This document shows positions 5,430 to 60,690 of a stretch of 64,000 nt of DNA, in pieces (the first letter of the stretch is position 1; each line of letters opens with the position of its first letter). Location of the stretch: IMG/VR virus record IMGVR_UViG_3300032267_001142, positions 1-64,000 of that record, one strand, 5' to 3'. Position numbers and translations under genes: made by a program. Below the pieces are notes generated by a model. It ran no database searches and had not been told where the DNA came from. It saw only the letters and a list, made by a program, of their open reading frames with translations. Source of the DNA: a virus.

Positions 5430-5538
5430 AACTTCGTGAAGAATACAGGATTGACAAATACAGTCAACAACAATTTTCAGATGACCTGGCAGCCCGGCGT
5501 GCTGCCCAATAGTCAAAGATAATACCTCGTTAAGAAAG

Positions 5539-5612
5539 TGCGCCCGACAGGACTCGAACCTGTAACCTCGGGATTATGAGTCCCTCGCTCTAAACCGTTG
5601 AGCTACAAGCGC
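5539..5612 (-). tRNA. tRNA with CAU anticodon (Met elongator or Ile2)
   Basis: Minus strand GCGCTTG-TA-GCTC AACGGTTTA GAGC-G-AGGGA CTCATAA TCCCG...ACAGG TTCGAGT CCTGT-CGGGCGC-A. Full cloverleaf; CCA not encoded; G1-C72 excludes initiator. Confidence 0.9.
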
Positions 5613-50263: not shown

Positions 50264-51052
50264 ATGAGCAATAAAGAGACAAAGGAAATGTATAAGTTCG
50301 TCTTCCCTCAGAAGACGATTATTGATGACAGAGAAGTCAAAGTCGACGAGTCTGGCAACGAAACGACAGTAATAACCAAAAAGCCGTCTTTTGTAGACCG
50401 CTCAATTAGACTGACCGTAGCTACTCGCCGCCAAATGGACGATGCTGAACTTTATTACAACGTGCTGGTAAGCAAGGGCATTCAGGCCGGTCTGATGAGC
50501 CGTCAGCTTTTGCAAAAGCGCTTTCTCGATGATGGTGGTCTTTTGGCAGAGGGGCAGAAATCCAAAGAGAAGTCCCTTTATGAATCCTTGAGCGAAAAAG
50601 AGTCGCAGTATTACTCTTTGCTCACGAAGCAGGACAAAACCCAAGAGGATACTGAGTCTCTCGCCAAGATTCAAAAAGAGCTGGCGCTGTTGAAGCATGA
50701 ACTTCAGTCTTGGGAGATGAGCAAGATGTCTATCTACGACATCACGGCGGAAAACCGAGCGCGCAACAAGACTATCCTCTGGTGGCTTTTTGAACTTAGC
50801 CAGATTAAGAATGATAAAGGCGAATGGGTGGCTCTATTTCCAGGAAAAACGACAGAAGAAAAATCAGACAAGTATCATTCACTCTTAGAGGGCGAGGGTT
50901 TAACTAAGGAAGACACGGAATTCTATCAAAACGTTATTTCTAAGTGTCTCATTTCTGTTTCCTATTGGTATTATGGCCGAGCCGAGTCGCAAGAGGATTT
51001 CGAGAAAGCTCAGCAAGAAATAGACAGGGACTCTAAGCTTCTTGCGGAGTAA
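50264..51052 (+). CDS. Tail assembly chaperone (gpG-like position)
   Basis: Acidic helical protein between the tube and TMP genes. Confidence 0.6.
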   Translation: MSNKETKEMYKFVFPQKTIIDDREVKVDESGNETTVITKKPSFVDRSIRLTVATRRQMDDAELYYNVLVSKGIQAGLMSRQLLQKRFLDDGGLLAEGQKSKEKSLYESLSEKESQYYSLLTKQDKTQEDTESLAKIQKELALLKHELQSWEMSKMSIYDITAENRARNKTILWWLFELSQIKNDKGEWVALFPGKTTEEKSDKYHSLLEGEGLTKEDTEFYQNVISKCLISVSYWYYGRAESQEDFEKAQQEIDRDSKLLAE

Positions 51053-51058
51053 AACAGG

Positions 51059-52066
51059 ATGAGCGAGACTTCAGCGAAGTCTATCGCTTTTTTGCGAAGG
51101 GTTTACTCTGAGATATTCTCTGGGTATACGCCTTTTATTGACCCGATAAGTGGAAATAGGGCGTTCATCCGTCACGTCTCTTCTTCGGAGCAGTCGGAGC
51201 TGGATGCCCGATACGAAGAGATTCTTGAAGACATCGTCTCTAAAGGCGTCCCGAATGAGGCGTCAGCACTTGCTATCGCTAAAGAGCGCGGTTTCTGGAA
51301 AGACTCTACTGACAAAGAGTTAGAAATAAAAAGAGAAGAGCTTCGTCAATTGAGGGATACGAAGAAGTGTCTGATTTTACCTTCTCAGATATGCAGCATC
51401 GACAAATCTATCGCTGATGCCGAAAGTTACATTCGGGGCGTCGAAATTGAGCGCGAGGAAGCTTTAGGTGTGACAGCGGAATCTCTTGCGATGGCTAGAT
51501 TGAATAACGTCTATATCCAACTAATGATGTTCTGCGACAAAAAGTTGGAAGTCCCGCTTTTTCCACCGGAAAGGTTCGATACGCTACAATATCGAGAGGT
51601 AACTAACGTGACGGCGGCATATAACGCCGCGATGTCTAAATTCGCGAACGTGAACATTAAGAATCTTTCGGTCGCCGCGTTTGTGCAAAATATGTTCAAT
51701 CTAGCTGGCAAGAAGCCATATTCTTTTTTCGGCAAAGCTATAGGCGGTCTGACCTTTTATCAAATAGAGTTGATGAATTATGTCGCTTATTTTTCTGCGC
51801 TTTTGTCTTCAGAAAACAGACCTCCTGACAGTATAATGGACGACCCAGAAAAAATCGTCAACTGGTATACTGCGGAAAAGAACAGTCGTGAAGCGCTTAA
51901 GTCTGGCAATGGGTCAGTGTCTATCGCCGGAGCGACTCAAGAAGATTTACAGCAATTGGGTGTCGCGAATAAAGTCGTAGATTTGGCAGCGATAGCCAAG
52001 AAAAAAGGCTCAACGGGCCTGACTATGGATGAGTTAATGTCTATTTCCCGTGGTGCGTCGTCATAA
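51059..52066 (+). CDS. Second tail assembly chaperone (gpT-like position)
   Basis: Immediately upstream of TMP; same reading frame as 50264..51052. Confidence 0.55.
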   Translation: MSETSAKSIAFLRRVYSEIFSGYTPFIDPISGNRAFIRHVSSSEQSELDARYEEILEDIVSKGVPNEASALAIAKERGFWKDSTDKELEIKREELRQLRDTKKCLILPSQICSIDKSIADAESYIRGVEIEREEALGVTAESLAMARLNNVYIQLMMFCDKKLEVPLFPPERFDTLQYREVTNVTAAYNAAMSKFANVNIKNLSVAAFVQNMFNLAGKKPYSFFGKAIGGLTFYQIELMNYVAYFSALLSSENRPPDSIMDDPEKIVNWYTAEKNSREALKSGNGSVSIAGATQEDLQQLGVANKVVDLAAIAKKKGSTGLTMDELMSISRGASS

Positions 52067-52102: not shown

Positions 52103-55100
52103 ATGCCAACTAGCGTTACTAACATACAGGCTAATTTAGACATGGTGCCAGTGAGCACCAAGGTCGACAACTATCTGTCCGGACTGGAGAGAAAGACTTA
52201 CAAAATCAAATTCGACGCTCAGCCGCTTGGTCACTTAAGCGGAAAAGCCTCCGAGTTTGAAAAGTCTCTCGAAGCTGCTAATGCGCGTGTCGTCGCGTTC
52301 GGTGCGTCGGCAAGCCTGATTGCTGGCGTAGGAACCGCCATGAAAGCGATGGTCAGGGAAGCCGTTCTCGTCGACAGAGAACTTACTGACATCAATGCTA
52401 TATTGCAGGCGTCTACCGGAAACCTCCAAAAGTTTGGTGATAGTCTGTTCGATATCGCAAAAAATACAGGCTCGTCCTTCTCTCAGGTTGCCGACGCCGC
52501 TAAGGAATTTGCTCGTCAAGGTCTTTCAATGGAGGAAACGTTGTCGAGAACGAACGGAGCGCTCGTCTTGACGCGTTTGTCGGGTTTGGAAGTCCAAGAC
52601 TCTGTAAAGGCTTTGACTGGAACTCTCAATACTTTCACGAAAGAGGCTCTAGGAGTTTGGGAAGTCGTGAACCGTCTCGCGAATGTTGACGCCGCTTTCG
52701 CCGTAAGCTCGGCTGACTTGGCCACAGCTATATCCCGCGTAGGTAACGTCGCTGAAGACTCGAAAATCAGTCTTAATGAACTTCTTGCTGCGGTTACCGC
52801 AGTTCAACAGAGAACTGCACGAGGCGGCGCGACTATCGGTGAAGCTTTCAAGACCATCTTTACTCGTCTTGAGCGTTCTGACACCATCGAGAAGCTTGGT
52901 CAGCTAGGTATCGCCACAAAGAACGTAGAAGGTCAGTTGCTTCCAGCAATGCAGGTGATGGAGACCCTTGCTGACAGGTTCTATACCCTTAGCGATTCTC
53001 AGCAGTCTTACATTGCCGAAGCGGTCGGTGGAGTTCGTCAGTTAAACATTCTGAAAGCTCTTCTCAAGGACTTGGGCTCGGAATATTCGATTTATAAAAG
53101 CTCCTTAGACGTAGCCAACAATACGACTAACGAGGCTACGACCAGAAATAACCTTCTCAATCAATCATTAGCCGCTCTTAAAAATAGGGCGTCGGTAGAT
53201 TTTTCTAAGTTTTCTGCGGCGACTCAGACAGCTTTCGCTCCCGCTTTGGAAAAGATATTTGGAGGATTTTCAGAAGTCGTCGCGGGCACGAATCTAGAAT
53301 CTAGTGGTAAGAGCATGGGAGACGCCATATTGAAAGGTCTGGGCTCAGTTATCTCGGGGCCGGTCTTGCAAGCCGTCACCGTTTTGGGTGTTAAATTCCT
53401 AGCTCAGTTTTCCGGTTTCGCGGCGAAGTCGTTGCAGCAGGTTCTTAATATCGGTAGCGTTTCTCGTAACGAGCTAGCCTTGCAGAAGGACATAAACGCC
53501 GTATTAGCTCAGACGCCTCACCTATATGACCAGATTCTTACAAAAGCTAAAAGTACTGTAGATGTTGTTCGTATTCTTTCCGAACACACAAAAGAACTAC
53601 AACTTGCAGGAGCGAGACAAACAAATATAGTAGGAGGCTCAGCCGCGCTACTCAACTCGTTAGGAGCTAAAGGCTCGTCTGAAGGAAATGGAAATTTTAA
53701 GCTAAAAGCTTCTGGATTCGTGCCTAATTTTGTAGACCCTATCGCGGCAATGGGGGAAGTCGCTAGTGCAAAACGCGCAGGGTATAACATATCACCTTCT
53801 GAGGTGCGCTCTATGCGGGCGCGTATTGACGGACGTAGCACTGAGGTTGTTTACAACACCCGCGAGACTGTAATCCCTAATTTTGCAGGGACCGGAGAAC
53901 CGGCGATAGTTCCTCCTAACGCGTCTATCTCTGACCTTATTAGCAGAAAATATGCCGCGAAAGGCGTCATGCCGGGCGGGCAAGAGCTAATTGGAAAAGG
54001 CTCATATCGCCGAGTATATACTCACGAAAAGGGAATAGAAAGCATTCCTCGTTCTGCTGAAGAGGTTTATCCTTCTGTTTCTAAGTTCATGACGCTGGAC
54101 GACGTTAGGGAGCTTATGGCCAGAGAAAGGCGTACGCGGCCAGCGTTGCAGAAGTCTATTGGAGACTTGGGCCTCGGACCAAAAGTATTCGATATTAGGG
54201 AAGACGGTTCTTATGTGGCCGAAAGAGTTTTGATGCCAAAGCTATCGGAGGCTTTAGCCGCAGGAACGATGACCAGTAAGGAAGCTTCTTCCATTCTGGA
54301 GAAAGCAAAGAAATCGCTAAAGGCCAAGGGTCTCGGAAATCTAAACGACGTAACATTTAATAATGTTGCCGGTAACGTAAACACGGGCAAGTTTTCTGTT
54401 TTAGATTTTGGTGGCGGGTTCGTCCCTAATTTTGCGAATTATTTTTCCGCGCCTACGAAGCGCTCAGAGCAACTGCCAGCCGATTTCCTTGAAAAGCTTC
54501 GTTTTCAAGGCCACATGCCTCGCGTTAGAATTCCCGCTAAAGATTTGGCGGTTTTTACGCCTGAGACTTTTAATTTCGGCATAGGTGATGGTTATGCTAG
54601 CCCTTTGGAGGCTGGGACTCAGCTTTACGGATACGGCAAAGAGGACATCGCTGAAAAACTAAGAGTTCCAACCGTGAACGGCGTGGCTTATGACGCCGGT
54701 ATTTCTGCTAGATACGGTAATCTAATGAAGGGTTTAGCTGGGCGAGGCGAGGCTGGAGCGGTGCTTCAGTCCATATTTGAAGACCAAGCTAAGAAAGGTA
54801 ACGACCGCATTATGCACGGTTTAGCTGTCGACGCTGGCGCGGTTTTCAGTTTGAAGACCGATGCCGGAAAGTCTCGTAGCTATCGCGATAACGGCCCCGA
54901 CAGTAGTGGCAAAACTTTTGAATCTGATTTCTTTAGGCAATATTTGAGTGGTTCACCTCTGCCGTCCTCAAACCAGCCGGTAGACGTCTCGGCAGCGAAT
55001 ATTGAAAAACTTAGGTCTGGAGATTTCAAAGCCTCATTGCCCTCTTGGATAACCCGTGGAGAATTAAAGATTTCGGCCTTTGAGTATTCTCAGCGCCGTG

Positions 55101-58100
55101 GCAAATCAACAGGAGCTTCTCCTAGCATCAGCCGTATCGTCGCTAATGAGCTTGTGTCGCGCCTCGACGAAGCCCTGCCAGCGATAATCTCTGACCCATC
55201 GGAGCTGAGAAGGGCTCTCAACGAAAAAACCAGAAAAGGAGAGACTTTCGGCTCAGTCCTGTCCAGAACTGCAAAATTGAACCCCGCCATATACAAGGGG
55301 CGCGGATTCGTTCCTAATTTTAGCTCCTCTCAAATTTCAGCGAGAGAGGCTATCGCGAGCGGTCTTACCTCTCAGATTCCTGGTCTCGGCGAAGCGATTT
55401 CTAGAGAAGTTTCTGGAACAGGCGTCTCTTTGGATGATACGAGAGTAAACCTCGGCGGACATTTGCCAGTTTCAGTAACAAACGTCAGAGACGAGGGACC
55501 ATTAGCTCTGCCTGAAATAGGCGCTGCCAGAGTTTCTAGAAGAGGCGGAAATCCTCGCTTAGCAGGAAGCGGAAAAGAGTATCTATCAAGAGGTTACGTT
55601 CCTAACTTTGCGACCGAAGACGACGAAGGTTTATTGATGCCTAGCAGCTCAAATCTGCCGGATAGAATTGTCGTTGTTGAGGTTAAAAATGCAAACGAGC
55701 TTGGACAAAAAATAGGCAATGCCGTAGCCGATGCAGACAAAAAGGCCAGCACTTCCGCTGGGACCGACACTAAAAATACGCCAACCGCTCCGAAGGTCGT
55801 CACTCCTCCTGTTTCAAGCTCCGAGAGCTTTCTTGACGGGGGAGACATAGCCCCGTCTAAGGACAAAGAGGAGGCTATAAGAAAAGACAAAGAAGATACT
55901 CGCAGAAATCAACTCGCCTTGGAGAGGGAGGGCGAAGCTTATCAAAAACGCAGGGAGTCCAAGGCTAAATGGGAGCAAAGGGCGATATACGGAAGCCTTG
56001 GCGTTTCGTTCTTAGGTGGCGCTATATCTAGTCAGTTTGGTGGAGATACTATCTCTGATAGAAAGACGGGCAGAAGAGTCGACGCCGCTGGAGAAGCCAT
56101 CTCTACTGGCTTAGGTGCATTTTCTGCAACAGGCAACGTTTACGTTGGAGCTGCTGCTGCGGTTGGTAGTTTGTTATTCAATTTAGGCAAACTAGGGACG
56201 ACTTTTGAGGACTTAGCAAAAGAGAGCGAAAAGCTTACCGCGAAGCATGCTGAAGTGACTCAGTCGCTTTCTGGGTTCTCGGTCGCGGTATCGCAGACTG
56301 ATGACTTAATCAAAGGCGGAGCCTCTAAGTCTGCTATTTTCCGAGCGCAGCAAGCTGAACAGGAGGCGTTCAATAGAACTCCGAAGGAATTACAGTCCAA
56401 GCTTCTCGCGGCGAATCGCGACCAAGAGACTCTCGCTAAAATACAAATAGACATAGCCAAAGAGCAAGAAAAAGAAGCTGCATTCGCAAATCTTTCTACC
56501 GTATCTAAAGGATATCAAGAAAAGGCTTACAAAAACCGAGGCTTTTTCGAGAGAGTGGGTTCAGGATTGGGACTTCCTTCGCTTGCTAACTTCGTCGCTG
56601 GAGCCACCGGCTTGAAGAAAACGGACGAGCTTAGTTCAAGTAACTACGATAAAGATGCTTATAAAGAAATCTCCGCCCTAATCCAAAAAACCGGCATTCT
56701 AGATAATCTCGACAACTCTCAACTGTCAGAATTGCGTGATAAACTAAAAGCCGCTCAATATACAAGTGCTAACGATTCTGCTTCGCTGACTCCTAATCAA
56801 AATACCCAAGCTAGAATTGCCGCTGTCGTAAAGCAACAAACTGGAGCGTCGTTGCCCGAAGAGTTTTCAGAGACCAATGGGACTATCGCCATCAAGGCGT
56901 TCTTGAGCGCCATCACTGGACAAGAAAATCTAAAGAGGTTTACTGACGCGCAGAAATCAGCTCAAGCTTTTTATATTTCGATTCGTTCGCTTTCTACCGC
57001 GTTTCAAGAATCGCAGAGGGCTACGTCAGCTTACGATAGCTTCGTGACTCAGAAAAGCTCTTCCGCCGCAGGTCTGGCTTTTGGCGGACTCCGTGGTATT
57101 GCGTCGTTAAACGAGCCATTTACATCTAGCGATTCAAAAATTCAAGAATCTTACAGAATTTCTAAAGCAGAAATCGAAACTTCAAGAAGTCTTGAACTCG
57201 AAAAAGCTCGTAACGAAGCAAGGGTTAACTTGAGTCAGGCAGTCTCTCCTCAAGTTATCGAGGAGGCGGTCTCAGGTAAGGGAGGAATAGCGTTTAAGGC
57301 CAACTTGAGGGAAGTTCTCGCGCAGGCGCAAACCGGAGACCCTTCTGTTATCGTCGCGAGACTATTATCATCTTTGGAGAATGCGAAAAATGGGAAAGCT
57401 GAAGGCGTTAGCGTAAGTGACTCCGCAGGAGCAGAACTCATAAGTACGCTCAAGACTTTACTATTCAATCAAAACTCGACAAAAGCCTCAATCAACGCGT
57501 CATTTAACGACAAATCTAACGATGCGTTTCAACAGGCCGGACTCGCTAGGACGGGAGCTGCGCTGGATTTCATAGGCAATCAGTTCAGGGGCTCTAAAGC
57601 CTTTTCGAGTGATGGTCAAGACATTTCGACTTCTTCTAAGGGATTTGCGGCGATACTAGAGGGAATAACGTTAACCAACGATAAGAGCGCGCAGAGACGT
57701 TTCAGACAGAGCTACAATAATCCCGTCGGCCCATTCGGTCCTGCGAGAGCTAATTTGGTATATGACGCCGAGCAAAAGAAGCTGCCGATATACGAAAACA
57801 TTGCGGCAGGAATCAAGGACGACGCCGCAAGCGGTCTTGGACCTACTCAGGAATTGGTTGATTTTCTAAACCGACAGGGTCGCTCGGCTGAAGCGGAAAA
57901 AGCCGCGAAAGGTCTTGCTCGAAATAGAGCCAGACTAGAAGGAGCTTACAGCGCGCAAGGCAAGAGCTTTCTGCAAAAAAACGGACTCGCTGATTTCGCT
58001 CAATTCAAAGACGCCATAAAAGGTGATGTCTTCGAGGGCTCATCTGGAGGTCGAGTTGATATATCTAGGACTTTGAATGATGTAGAAGCTGCCGTTAAGT

Positions 58101-59071
58101 CTACTGACTTCGGAAAAGCGCAAAGTCTTCTTTCGGGTTTGAGAACTTCTGCCAGCCCAATAGCCGCTAAGAAAATCGACGAATTTTCACAAAGAATCGG
58201 CGGTCTTAAGAGTCAGTCAGAATTACTGGGCGTCTCTGCGAATCTGCAAGCCGCTAAGGACTTGAAAGGCGGCGCTGGCCCACTTACAAATGATAAATAT
58301 TGGGAGGGCGTAATAAAGCTTTATGGCGCGTTGGTATCAAGGTTGACTTATTCGGAAAACCGCGAAGCGGTCGATACCGTAATGGGTTCTTCATTAGGCG
58401 CACTCAAAAATATTACATCTCTTGGGGCGAATCCCGCTGCAATTTTTACTTCTGGGGCTTTCAGCACCACGGGCGCAAAACTCAATAGCGAGGTTGAGGC
58501 TACTAGACTCTCATTGAGTGCCGCGATGGATAAGGCCACTCCTAAATTTGTAGACCCAAGACTGCCTCAGTATTCCGAAATTTATGCAGGACCGCAAAGA
58601 AGAGTGCAGGACGCTATAACTGCTTTACCTGCTGGCACTGGTGTCGATAAGAGCATGGTGGCCATCATGAGTGATGGTTACGGCGCTGACAGGGAGTCTA
58701 CCGATAGAAGGGTTTATGAGGACTTCGCTAGAATTCTGCGTGAAAATAACAAAGTCGGCTCGTTGCTAGGTTCGACTCCTACTAATGACATAGTGGGTAG
58801 CGTTATGAACGCGGTTAATGATGCGCTGCGTCGCGACGTAGGCAATCGTTACGAATCTGGGAATCTCGGCAAGGATATCAAGGTAAACACTGATGGGACA
58901 ATTACTCTCAACGCTTCTGTAAATATCAAAGCCGACGAGTCGGATGTAGCTCAGAGAGTTAAATCGGAATTCGATAAGGTGTTTGAAAATCTTCAGTATC
59001 AGATTCAACAAATCATCAATCAAACTGGGGCGGTAATTCCTCCTAGGTCGTTCAGTCAGCCTGTTCAATAA
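52103..59071 (+). CDS. Tape measure protein (2322 aa) with internal cargo domains
   Basis: N-terminal TP901-type TMP repeats (A.EFARQGL, L.L.RLSGL, ELLAAVTAVQQRTARGGA.IG.AFKTI..RL) and Gly/Ala-rich helical segments. Internal G[FY]VPNF repeats at aa 538, 772, 1068, 1164 and a kinase-like domain at aa ~625-770. Confidence 0.9.
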   Translation: MPTSVTNIQANLDMVPVSTKVDNYLSGLERKTYKIKFDAQPLGHLSGKASEFEKSLEAANARVVAFGASASLIAGVGTAMKAMVREAVLVDRELTDINAILQASTGNLQKFGDSLFDIAKNTGSSFSQVADAAKEFARQGLSMEETLSRTNGALVLTRLSGLEVQDSVKALTGTLNTFTKEALGVWEVVNRLANVDAAFAVSSADLATAISRVGNVAEDSKISLNELLAAVTAVQQRTARGGATIGEAFKTIFTRLERSDTIEKLGQLGIATKNVEGQLLPAMQVMETLADRFYTLSDSQQSYIAEAVGGVRQLNILKALLKDLGSEYSIYKSSLDVANNTTNEATTRNNLLNQSLAALKNRASVDFSKFSAATQTAFAPALEKIFGGFSEVVAGTNLESSGKSMGDAILKGLGSVISGPVLQAVTVLGVKFLAQFSGFAAKSLQQVLNIGSVSRNELALQKDINAVLAQTPHLYDQILTKAKSTVDVVRILSEHTKELQLAGARQTNIVGGSAALLNSLGAKGSSEGNGNFKLKASGFVPNFVDPIAAMGEVASAKRAGYNISPSEVRSMRARIDGRSTEVVYNTRETVIPNFAGTGEPAIVPPNASISDLISRKYAAKGVMPGGQELIGKGSYRRVYTHEKGIESIPRSAEEVYPSVSKFMTLDDVRELMARERRTRPALQKSIGDLGLGPKVFDIREDGSYVAERVLMPKLSEALAAGTMTSKEASSILEKAKKSLKAKGLGNLNDVTFNNVAGNVNTGKFSVLDFGGGFVPNFANYFSAPTKRSEQLPADFLEKLRFQGHMPRVRIPAKDLAVFTPETFNFGIGDGYASPLEAGTQLYGYGKEDIAEKLRVPTVNGVAYDAGISARYGNLMKGLAGRGEAGAVLQSIFEDQAKKGNDRIMHGLAVDAGAVFSLKTDAGKSRSYRDNGPDSSGKTFESDFFRQYLSGSPLPSSNQPVDVSAANIEKLRSGDFKASLPSWITRGELKISAFEYSQRRGKSTGASPSISRIVANELVSRLDEALPAIISDPSELRRALNEKTRKGETFGSVLSRTAKLNPAIYKGRGFVPNFSSSQISAREAIASGLTSQIPGLGEAISREVSGTGVSLDDTRVNLGGHLPVSVTNVRDEGPLALPEIGAARVSRRGGNPRLAGSGKEYLSRGYVPNFATEDDEGLLMPSSSNLPDRIVVVEVKNANELGQKIGNAVADADKKASTSAGTDTKNTPTAPKVVTPPVSSSESFLDGGDIAPSKDKEEAIRKDKEDTRRNQLALEREGEAYQKRRESKAKWEQRAIYGSLGVSFLGGAISSQFGGDTISDRKTGRRVDAAGEAISTGLGAFSATGNVYVGAAAAVGSLLFNLGKLGTTFEDLAKESEKLTAKHAEVTQSLSGFSVAVSQTDDLIKGGASKSAIFRAQQAEQEAFNRTPKELQSKLLAANRDQETLAKIQIDIAKEQEKEAAFANLSTVSKGYQEKAYKNRGFFERVGSGLGLPSLANFVAGATGLKKTDELSSSNYDKDAYKEISALIQKTGILDNLDNSQLSELRDKLKAAQYTSANDSASLTPNQNTQARIAAVVKQQTGASLPEEFSETNGTIAIKAFLSAITGQENLKRFTDAQKSAQAFYISIRSLSTAFQESQRATSAYDSFVTQKSSSAAGLAFGGLRGIASLNEPFTSSDSKIQESYRISKAEIETSRSLELEKARNEARVNLSQAVSPQVIEEAVSGKGGIAFKANLREVLAQAQTGDPSVIVARLLSSLENAKNGKAEGVSVSDSAGAELISTLKTLLFNQNSTKASINASFNDKSNDAFQQAGLARTGAALDFIGNQFRGSKAFSSDGQDISTSSKGFAAILEGITLTNDKSAQRRFRQSYNNPVGPFGPARANLVYDAEQKKLPIYENIAAGIKDDAASGLGPTQELVDFLNRQGRSAEAEKAAKGLARNRARLEGAYSAQGKSFLQKNGLADFAQFKDAIKGDVFEGSSGGRVDISRTLNDVEAAVKSTDFGKAQSLLSGLRTSASPIAAKKIDEFSQRIGGLKSQSELLGVSANLQAAKDLKGGAGPLTNDKYWEGVIKLYGALVSRLTYSENREAVDTVMGSSLGALKNITSLGANPAAIFTSGAFSTTGAKLNSEVEATRLSLSAAMDKATPKFVDPRLPQYSEIYAGPQRRVQDAITALPAGTGVDKSMVAIMSDGYGADRESTDRRVYEDFARILRENNKVGSLLGSTPTNDIVGSVMNAVNDALRRDVGNRYESGNLGKDIKVNTDGTITLNASVNIKADESDVAQRVKSEFDKVFENLQYQIQQIINQTGAVIPPRSFSQPVQ

Positions 59072-60690
59072 TGATAGCGTTTGACAATGTAACATTGCTG
59101 TCTTACTCGCATTCTCCGTCCTTCTTCGGTTTCGGATTACGCTACAAAGTTCAAAAGACCTTTTCTATAGAGGGCGTCCTTGTCGATTTATCTAATACGG
59201 ACGGTCTTACAGGGACGTGGACTAAAGCTGAGCTTCTAAATCTGAGCGCCAAAGATTACGAAGATATCATAATCAACGGAAAGAGCTTTGGTAAAGGTAA
59301 AGTTAGGTCTATTTCTTTCGCGGCGGGAAACCATGTTCAACAGCAGAAATACTCATTAAATATAGAGGCTTATTCTACTGGTGACCTGTCTTTGTCGCTC
59401 CCTCCAGAATATGACGGTTTGGACTTTTCAACAATCGCCTGCGTAGACTCGTTTAACGATTCTCTTTCGTTTACGCGTGATGAATCCAAGGACCAAGCAT
59501 ATCAGCACTCTTTGAATATTAGATTCAATCGTAACATCGCTTCACTTACGCAGAATCCGACAGATTTGGCGAAAGCTTTAGCCATTAATTTCTTTTCCAA
59601 TACAAATCTGTCTTCTTTTATCGGCGATTTCGATGGATTAGTAGTCAACAAGTATCATACCGAAACTTATAACGCGGTCGATTTCTCTTGTTCTATTTCT
59701 GAAACTTGGAAGATACCTAACGCTTCTGCCGGTGACTATTCCATTTCCTTCTTTCATACACTGACTCTTTCAGAAAAGGGCATTGTTTCCGCTTCCGAGA
59801 AGGGCTCTATTACAGCTCTGGCAACTCCGCGTCAGGCTTCGGCAGCTTTAGGTTTTGCTACTGAAGCGACGGACGCGCTGGTTTACGGACGCGTAAATAG
59901 TATCTATGCCAATTACAATTGGTCTATACTGCCCCTTCATGAAATCGTAATAAGCTCAGAGGTCTCCGATAACAAGTTCGAGGGAAAAATCGAGTATACC
60001 AAAACATTTACAAATGACCCAAAAGTCTTTGAATACGCTATTTGGGATAAAACTTTGTCATTCTCTAGGTCGGAACAGAACTATATCACCGTTTCTGAAC
60101 GCGGAAGTGTCAGAGGCATAGGAAGGCCGCTTGTGAATAAATTTGAAAGAGCTAAGGACTTTTACAATTCTAGTGTTTTATCCGGAATTGCCGCAAGAGC
60201 TTTGGCCTTTTACAACTACTGTGGCGGCACCAACGCCGCGTCGCTAGTTGTGGACAAGGTGGGTTATTCTGAGGCTAAATACGCAGGGGCGATAGACTAC
60301 GAGCGCTCTTGGACCGATAATCGTCAGTATATCATGGCAGCGGACATAAAAAAACAGGAAGTTTCGGTGTCTACTGAATATCCCGTTCATCTTACCTCCG
60401 TTTTCAATATTTTCAATGAAAAGCAGCTCATTCAACCCCAAAATACTTCTACCGTAGGAAATAGGAGTATCGAAATCAAGCTTCAGGGCGCTCGCTCAAC
60501 CACACTCGCGCAATATGTAGCCGCCGCAAAAGCAATCATAGTCGCTAATTCTTATCATCTAATCGGCACGGACCCAATAATATCATCAGCCAACTACTCT
60601 TTACAAAAGAACCGAAACCGTTTCTCTATGTCTGTAAGGCTCAGTTTTTTTGGTTTCTATCGAGCCTTCGAGAGGCTCTCTCTGTCTTAA
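59071..60690 (+). CDS. Tail-tip / hub protein (paralog of 60692..62293)
   Basis: Beta-rich, directly after TMP, with repeated (V/I)SE.G.(I/V) and Y...(F/W)T(N/D) units. Confidence 0.6.
   Translation: MIAFDNVTLLSYSHSPSFFGFGLRYKVQKTFSIEGVLVDLSNTDGLTGTWTKAELLNLSAKDYEDIIINGKSFGKGKVRSISFAAGNHVQQQKYSLNIEAYSTGDLSLSLPPEYDGLDFSTIACVDSFNDSLSFTRDESKDQAYQHSLNIRFNRNIASLTQNPTDLAKALAINFFSNTNLSSFIGDFDGLVVNKYHTETYNAVDFSCSISETWKIPNASAGDYSISFFHTLTLSEKGIVSASEKGSITALATPRQASAALGFATEATDALVYGRVNSIYANYNWSILPLHEIVISSEVSDNKFEGKIEYTKTFTNDPKVFEYAIWDKTLSFSRSEQNYITVSERGSVRGIGRPLVNKFERAKDFYNSSVLSGIAARALAFYNYCGGTNAASLVVDKVGYSEAKYAGAIDYERSWTDNRQYIMAADIKKQEVSVSTEYPVHLTSVFNIFNEKQLIQPQNTSTVGNRSIEIKLQGARSTTLAQYVAAAKAIIVANSYHLIGTDPIISSANYSLQKNRNRFSMSVRLSFFGFYRAFERLSLS

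Follow-up and report, generated by a model that had tools for sequence, protein, structure and literature searches.

The stretch of viral DNA analyzed here, referred to below as the window, comprises 64,000 nucleotides (positions 1 to 64,000) of IMG/VR record IMGVR_UViG_3300032267_001142, a complete virus genome of 186,105 bp with direct terminal repeats. The gene of interest encodes a protein of 2,322 amino acids (aa) that is the tape measure protein (TMP) of this phage: residues 119–309 match the PF10145 (PhageMin_Tail) model with an E value of 1.5e-28 and a score of 100.5 bits (cut-off, 33.2 bits), 13 PHROG TMP families match its first ~500 residues, and both its great length and its position within the tail gene block are those of a TMP. 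Embedded in the middle of this protein is a segment with a predicted protein-kinase-like (PKL) fold, which lacks the rear of the kinase C-terminal lobe (C-lobe) and which is bounded by a short repeated peptide. The features discussed are collected in Table 1.

The TMP combines conserved ends with a variable middle. Its N-terminal block shares 35–50% identity with related TMPs by BLASTP and ends at approximately residues 605–630 in nearly all of them, and a helical C-terminal part, roughly residues 1230–2100, is likewise common to the family. The nearest cultured relatives of the N-terminal block are the SPbeta YomI-type TMPs, at less than 30% identity. The variable middle consists of three cassettes, namely the kinase-like cassette, an orphan cassette of 289 aa (cassette C) and a cassette of ~90 aa, each of which is closed by a hexapeptide of the form G-[FY]-V-P-N-F. 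Copies of this delimiter begin at residues 538, 772, 1068 and 1164, and a V-I-P-N-F is also found at residue 589. Related TMPs carry up to nine copies of an extended form, [FLY]-[AS]-x-G-x-[VI]-P-N-[FY], and the homology between TMPs breaks exactly at these peptides. The codons of the four hexapeptides in the window differ at wobble positions, which argues that selection acts on the peptide and not on a DNA recombination site. The peptide may serve for cleavage or docking, or may act as a flexible joint. Cassette C has no relative among the TMP homologs and no Pfam or PHROG match, a language-model (feature) search of the ESM Atlas gave no usable neighbor for it, and its single-sequence AlphaFold2 (AF2) model, with a predicted local distance difference test score (pLDDT) of 35, is unusable. 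More broadly, no Pfam or PHROG match was obtained with residues 534–780 or 771–1200.

Table 1. Coordinates of the TMP gene and of the features within it, as positions in the window.
Feature	Residues	Position	Strand	Basis or remark
TMP gene		52103..59071	+	single open reading frame, 2322 aa
Conserved N-terminal TMP block	1-625	52103..53977	+	BLASTP; common to ~25 related TMPs
Delimiter 1, GFVPNF	538-543	53714..53731	+	
Predicted C-lobe-less PKL cassette	626-771	53978..54415	+	AF2, structure searches, homology block 626/629-778
Gly-loop, beta1-beta2	629-639	53987..54019	+	A1 (five-TMP alignment, see text); aligned to Pim-1 Gly-loop
Candidate beta3-Lys equivalent, end of beta3	Arg650	54050..54052	+	A1; strands from AF2
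Candidate alphaC acid, in long helix	Glu675	54125..54127	+	E/E/D/E/D across the family
Catalytic loop, D749-x4-N754	749-754	54347..54364	+	in register with HRD...N of Pim-1 and haspin
DFG	768-770	54404..54412	+	Asp768 is the metal-binding candidate; aligned to Pim-1 DFG
Delimiter 2, GFVPNF	772-777	54416..54433	+	disordered in model
Cassette C, orphan	779-1067	54437..55303	+	
Delimiter 3, G-[FY]-V-P-N-F type	1068-1073	55304..55321	+	
Delimiter 4, GYVPNF	1164-1169	55592..55609	+	end of variable middle

Relatives of the kinase-like cassette are few. An exhaustive phmmer search with residues 545–782 against 1.84 billion representative proteins returned 28 matches, which divide the query into residues 549–626, matched in ~20 TMPs, versus residues 626–779, matched in five places only. 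One of the five is a close TMP (P0003, 54% identity), three are giant TMPs matched at ~30% identity (P0022, P0023 and P0027), and the last, a weak match, is a stand-alone protein of 177 aa (P0029). The module of the window was aligned with those of the four other TMPs, and this alignment is referred to as A1. When the A1 profile was run against PDB sequences, all 60 of the 60 matches listed were kinases, and the matches were colinear; in the alignment to Pim-1, the glycine-rich loop (Gly-loop) falls on the Gly-loop, and the catalytic loop and DFG fall on H-R-D...N...D-F-G. The module of P0023 matches the haspin catalytic loop and, taken as a segment, the Pfam ABC1 family (PF03109, E = 1.2e-5); the whole P0023 protein scores 19.3 bits against PF03109, below the cut-off of 22.9, and the window's module does not match it. 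None of the five modules matched PF00069 at E <= 10, the OspG/NleH hidden Markov model (HMM) PF22303 did not match the cassette, the RIO1 HMM matched nothing in the whole 186-kb record, and phmmer with the window's segment against PDB returned only noise (pepV, E = 0.036). An hhalign comparison of A1 with E. coli UbiB (probability 0.3) was too weak for mapping the beta3 Lys.

An AF2 model of the cassette built from A1, which holds only five sequences, reached a pLDDT of 82.4 and a predicted template modeling score of 0.76. Its elements follow in the order beta1–3, a short helix, a 24-residue helix, beta4–5, two helices, a loop and beta7–8, so that the PKL core (the sheet of the N-terminal lobe (N-lobe) with alphaC, alphaD/alphaE, the catalytic loop and beta7–8) is present in the model. 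Foldseek comparison of this model with PDB, a check that had been proposed in an earlier note on this DNA, listed 50 matches, of which all 50 were kinases, most at a probability of 1.00. The highest VIA-align Z values were 10.6 for PRPK/Bud32 (7szc), 10.4 for Rio2 (1tqi) and 10.2 for OspG, with 132 of 168 residues aligned; NleH2 gave 8.6. Among the matches listed for BFVD and the ESM Atlas there were likewise only kinases, those in the ESM Atlas at template modeling (TM) scores by query of 0.63–0.70, and the language-model neighbors of the cassette include, besides phage proteins, the OspG family at a similarity of 0.95. By model and profile together, the assignment of residues 626–771 to a genuine PKL fold is secure.

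The earlier note had placed a kinase domain at 53975–54412 (residues 625–770), and the motifs it quoted do lie at the residues it gave: the Gly-loop, K661, E675, GLGPKV, D749, N754 and the DFG. The Gly-loop pattern G-x-G-x-[FY]-x-x-V is found at residues 631–638. Seven residues are invariant across the five TMP modules in A1: G633, R636, V638, P649, E653, R679 and N754. In the Pim-1 alignment R636 stands opposite the third Gly of G-x-G-x-x-G, a position at which WNK kinases such as WNK1 have their catalytic Lys, and this Arg could take over the role of the beta3 Lys. The beta3 Lys had been assigned in the earlier note to K661, in the sequence VSKF; this candidate was rejected, as K661 is not conserved across the five modules. 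Position 650, at the end of the modeled beta3 strand, is the likelier equivalent. The suggested alphaC Glu, E675 in the sequence MARE, is replaced only by Asp within the family. In the catalytic loop, D749 is kept in four of the five TMP modules and in P0029, and the loop of P0022 has an insertion; the P0023 module bears both the Lys and an H-x-D. At position 768 four of the TMP modules have Asp and one has Glu, and P0029 has Asp. The Phe and Gly of the DFG coincide with the extended delimiter consensus [FLY]-[AS]-x-G-x-[VI]-P-N-F, of which P0022 and P0023 contain nine copies each, and therefore only Asp768 of this motif is clearly kinase-specific; its equivalent is kept in P0029, which has no delimiter. 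The DFG called from the sequence of the window is thus upheld as regards its Asp and is ambiguous as regards the two residues that follow.

The cassette ends almost immediately beyond this Asp. In BLASTP comparisons of the whole TMP, the homology block shared with P0022, P0023 and P0027 runs only from residues 626–629 to residues 775–778, and the TMP of P0003 diverges directly past residue 775. Disorder in the AF2 model starts three residues past D768, with pLDDT below 50 at model residues 152–163, so that the homology and the confident model both end 3–7 residues past D768. This is in agreement with the proposal that the domain stops at the next GFVPNF, residues 768–770 being followed by the delimiter at 772–777. 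As modeled, the cassette comprises the N-lobe (beta1–beta5 and alphaC), alphaD, alphaE, the catalytic loop, beta7–8 and the metal-binding Asp, and nothing further; the rear C-lobe, i.e., the activation segment and alphaF–alphaI, was not found in it. The kinase domain proposed for the TMP is therefore borne out in its fold and in the conservation of its residues; it falls short of a complete bilobed kinase, as it stops at the DFG. The downstream cassette was considered as a supplier of the missing C-lobe and ruled out, as the relatives have different neighbors at this place or none. Because the block ends at ~775–778 with no conserved neighbor, the rear C-lobe is neither present nor supplied from downstream. 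The cassette, which ends at the metal-binding Asp, is among the smallest natural kinase cores.

The kinase block is located at TMP position 1517 in P0022, 1214 in P0023 and 1052 in P0027. From these differing positions, and from the homology ending at G-x-[VI]-P-N-F, it follows that the kinase module is, as judged by sequence comparison, a mobile cassette among related giant TMPs. The TMP of P0022 (L003:3001-14112), a protein of 3,703 aa with nine delimiter peptides, also bears a DUF7178 domain (residues 799–1005, E = 4.9e-15) and a weak T4_Y16D match, and with these beside its kinase cassette its cassette train mixes several families. The stand-alone P0029 (L001:223-756) starts at beta3, and its C terminus bears a Gly-loop-like I-G-E-G-x-x-R-x-V-F. 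In its native order it scores 43 bits against the A1 profile; with its last ~35 residues moved to the front the score rises to 51 bits and the alignment runs end to end, versus 43 bits for controls with shuffled tails. This weak hint suggests that P0029 may be a circular permutant of the cassette, with the post-DFG end joined to the Gly-loop start, and such a permutation fits the limits of the cassette given here. The 7-kb contig of P0029 also encodes a Zeta_toxin/AAA_33 protein.

Truncated kinases have been described before in the "polyvalent proteins" of phages, where they are monophyletic, have lost the entire C-terminal subdomain and have kept their active-site residues (Iyer et al. 2017, PMC5512222); T7-kinase-like roles have been proposed for them (PMC5512222). 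The cassette resembles these kinases in having lost the C-lobe while largely keeping the residues of ATP binding and phosphotransfer, and also in its setting, a giant multidomain phage carrier that presumably accompanies the DNA into the host and whose modules are shuffled. It differs from them in sequence, as A1 lacks the Glu before strand 2, the Gln of the final strand of the N-lobe and the His-Asp insert, and the Kinase-PolyVal model (PF18762) has no match at E <= 10 in the whole 186-kb record, nor in hmmscan of the five modules. Unlike the polyvalent-protein kinases, the cassettes here are bounded by G-x-[VI]-P-N-F, and their carrier is a true TMP with a PF10145 domain; a tape measure carrier is absent from PMC5512222, in which "tape" has 0 occurrences. 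The view expressed in the earlier note that no TMP-borne kinase had been described stands in that none was found in the full-text literature searched, the coverage of which excludes most subscription journals, and requires amendment in that C-lobe-less kinases have been on record in phage polyvalent proteins since 2017 (PMC5512222).

Small kinases of other origins offer further parallels. The type III effectors OspG and NleH (PDB 4q5e, 4bvu and 4lrk), which are minimal PKL proteins of ~170 aa, match the cassette model at TM scores by target of 0.52–0.55. They pass into the host by way of a narrow conduit, and in its small size the cassette resembles both them and the polyvalent-protein kinases, for which delivery is likewise through a narrow conduit. 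Identity between the cassette and OspG is only ~14%, and OspG differs in that it retains short helices past the DFG, is activated by E2~ubiquitin and has eukaryotic targets. The best structural matches, Bud32/PRPK and the RIO kinases, are likewise small, without an activation loop and with a similar hinge; they keep C-lobe helices past the DFG, however, PRPK being aligned only over residues 31–186 of ~250, they are ATPases acting in KEOPS and in ribosome maturation, and they show no sequence-level match to the cassette. As to enzymes within TMPs, the TMP of mycobacteriophage TM4 contains a peptidoglycan-hydrolase motif (PMC1796659). Like the enzymes of this TMP and of SPbeta YomI (annotated as TMP / lytic transglycosylase), the cassette is a module inside a TMP, putatively catalytic and presumed to act at the time of infection. 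The TM4 and YomI enzymes are peptidoglycan hydrolases that act on the wall and do not need ATP, whereas the cassette has an ATP-dependent fold, the workplace of which is the cytoplasm. Phage T7 gp0.7, with which the earlier note compared the cassette, is a PKL enzyme whose action on host proteins comes very early in infection, and the analogy is conjectural. Unlike the cassette, gp0.7 is made from the first-entering DNA, is not virion-borne and is not cut at the DFG.

The reading preferred here, to which we give about half of our confidence, is that residues 626–771 form a self-contained, C-lobe-less PKL cassette that uses ATP and reaches the host with the TMP as a pre-made enzyme. The module would bind ATP-Mg in its cleft, where the phosphates would be held by Arg636 and/or Lys/Arg650 and where D749, N754 and D768 would catalyze transfer or hydrolysis of the gamma-phosphate. 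TMPs occupy the tail lumen and exit the virion before the DNA, and because of this order the module could enter the host already made. It would probably pass through the tube unfolded or in a staggered arrangement, and, prior to any phage gene expression, its target would be a host component or the TMP itself. A more elaborate form of this scheme, which we regard as unlikely, has the middle of the TMP as a swappable effector train in which the kinase is released or exposed at G-[FY]-V-P-N-F, refolds and phosphorylates a component of host defense, translation or the envelope before transcription begins; its extreme truncation would then have evolved to let it pass through the tube, independently of the type III effector kinases.

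A number of observations count against the preferred reading, and the alternatives take them up in different ways. The window's own segment has no Pfam match even at an E value of 10 and no PHROG match, which, with the want of a PDB sequence match, is what one would expect of a non-kinase segment containing a few kinase-like motifs; this explanation is effectively refuted, since the block is kept in four other TMPs, folds confidently and matches kinases only, and the fold and profile searches agree with the pattern of conservation in indicating kinases. The family is also small, at five TMPs and one weak stand-alone protein, and its conservation statistics are thin. Within the active site, position 650 is Lys in four of the four TMP relatives and Arg in the window's module, and in canonical kinases a change of Lys to Arg at the beta3 site is a standard way to make a kinase-dead form. 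The window's module, which reads N-L-N-D, also lacks the His of HxD, and without alphaF or the later helices both stability and substrate binding are unexplained. These features would suit a pseudokinase or ligand-binding cassette, with a kinase-like fold and no phosphotransfer, serving as a binder of nucleotides or small molecules (a sponge or sensor), a protein-docking scaffold, or a folded spacer or plug in the tail; so would the best structural neighbors, as Bud32/PRPK and RIO proteins are mainly ATPases or switches. Pseudokinases usually lose some of the catalytic residues, however, and here every member retains the Gly-loop and N754, while the metal-binding Asp is retained in all but one (P0029 being among those that retain it) and D749 in most, with the invariant Arg636 available as a possible substitute for the beta3 Lys. 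We place a cassette of this kind on the unlikely side.

Delivery raises difficulties of another sort. In Gram-negative hosts much of the ejected TMP is thought to be retained in the envelope, a compartment devoid of ATP, and a tail lumen of ~4 nm is too narrow for three folded domains of 17 kDa abreast. As such a lumen hardly houses folded globular domains, the enzyme could instead be active without being delivered, working in the producing cell or being excised at G-[FY]-V-P-N-F, with the TMP gene as a polyprotein vehicle for late expression. The strictly conserved delimiter peptide with its wobble differences would suit a protease or docking site of the kind that this explanation needs. Such a protease and cleavage are only hypothetical, delimiters are also found within the N-terminal block (residues 538 and 589), a part of the protein that has to remain in the tail, and the TMP-embedded enzymes studied so far act at infection, e.g., the TM4 hydrolase motif (PMC1796659). 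An active but undelivered enzyme seems quite improbable.

The genes around the TMP give the locus its context. Terminase and portal genes are located upstream, and apart from these two nothing was recognized by PHROG and Pfam among ten neighboring open reading frames. The TMP gene is directly flanked by genes for proteins of ~262 and ~335 aa before it and ~539 aa after it (window 50264–52066 and 59071–60690), which match no Pfam or PHROG family and whose size and order are kept in four of four related loci. The tail module in which they lie is deep-branching and belongs to an uncultured phage lineage. No GenBank phage was matched by megablast with the TMP or by tblastn with two kinase modules. 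A search for related loci in viral contigs found no relative. Searches for homologous proteins by region returned only the protein itself, and those at near lengths returned none; the "longer" band of this search extends to 2000 aa and hence excludes the giant TMPs. Among sequencing runs, this stretch is contained only in the probable source metagenome, and no RNA run is listed as containing it.

Some further features were observed in the TMP and the window. Residues ~549–626 (window 53735–53977) form a short module that closes the N-terminal block and is kept in ~20 related TMPs; it contains the V-I-P-N-F at residues 589–593 and has no Pfam match, and in one relative, P0025, eight separate stretches match part of it. 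Three hydrophobic, Gly/Ala-rich segments, at residues ~58–90, 409–439 and 1346–1364 (window 52274–52372, 53327–53417 and 56138–56194), are candidate membrane-inserting stretches and flank the cassette region on both sides. A minus-strand tRNA-Met gene (CAT) lies at 5538–5612; this half of the window is the one with higher GC content and short open reading frames.

To our knowledge, the enzymes so far known to be embedded in TMPs are wall-degrading only. Injected multidomain phage proteins with a truncated kinase, and TMPs with an enzyme cassette, were both known before. An ATP-dependent kinase fold within a TMP would imply that part of this protein reaches the cytoplasm in working form, and the kinase cassette would let these phages modify host proteins or metabolites before transcription, a logic like that of T4 Alt and the N4 virion RNA polymerase (vRNAP) in which the tail ruler serves as the vehicle. 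The module also offers a means of exploring how small a catalytic unit of the kinase fold can be, and the array of peptide-delimited cassettes suggests a general, possibly engineerable, cargo slot in long-tailed phages.

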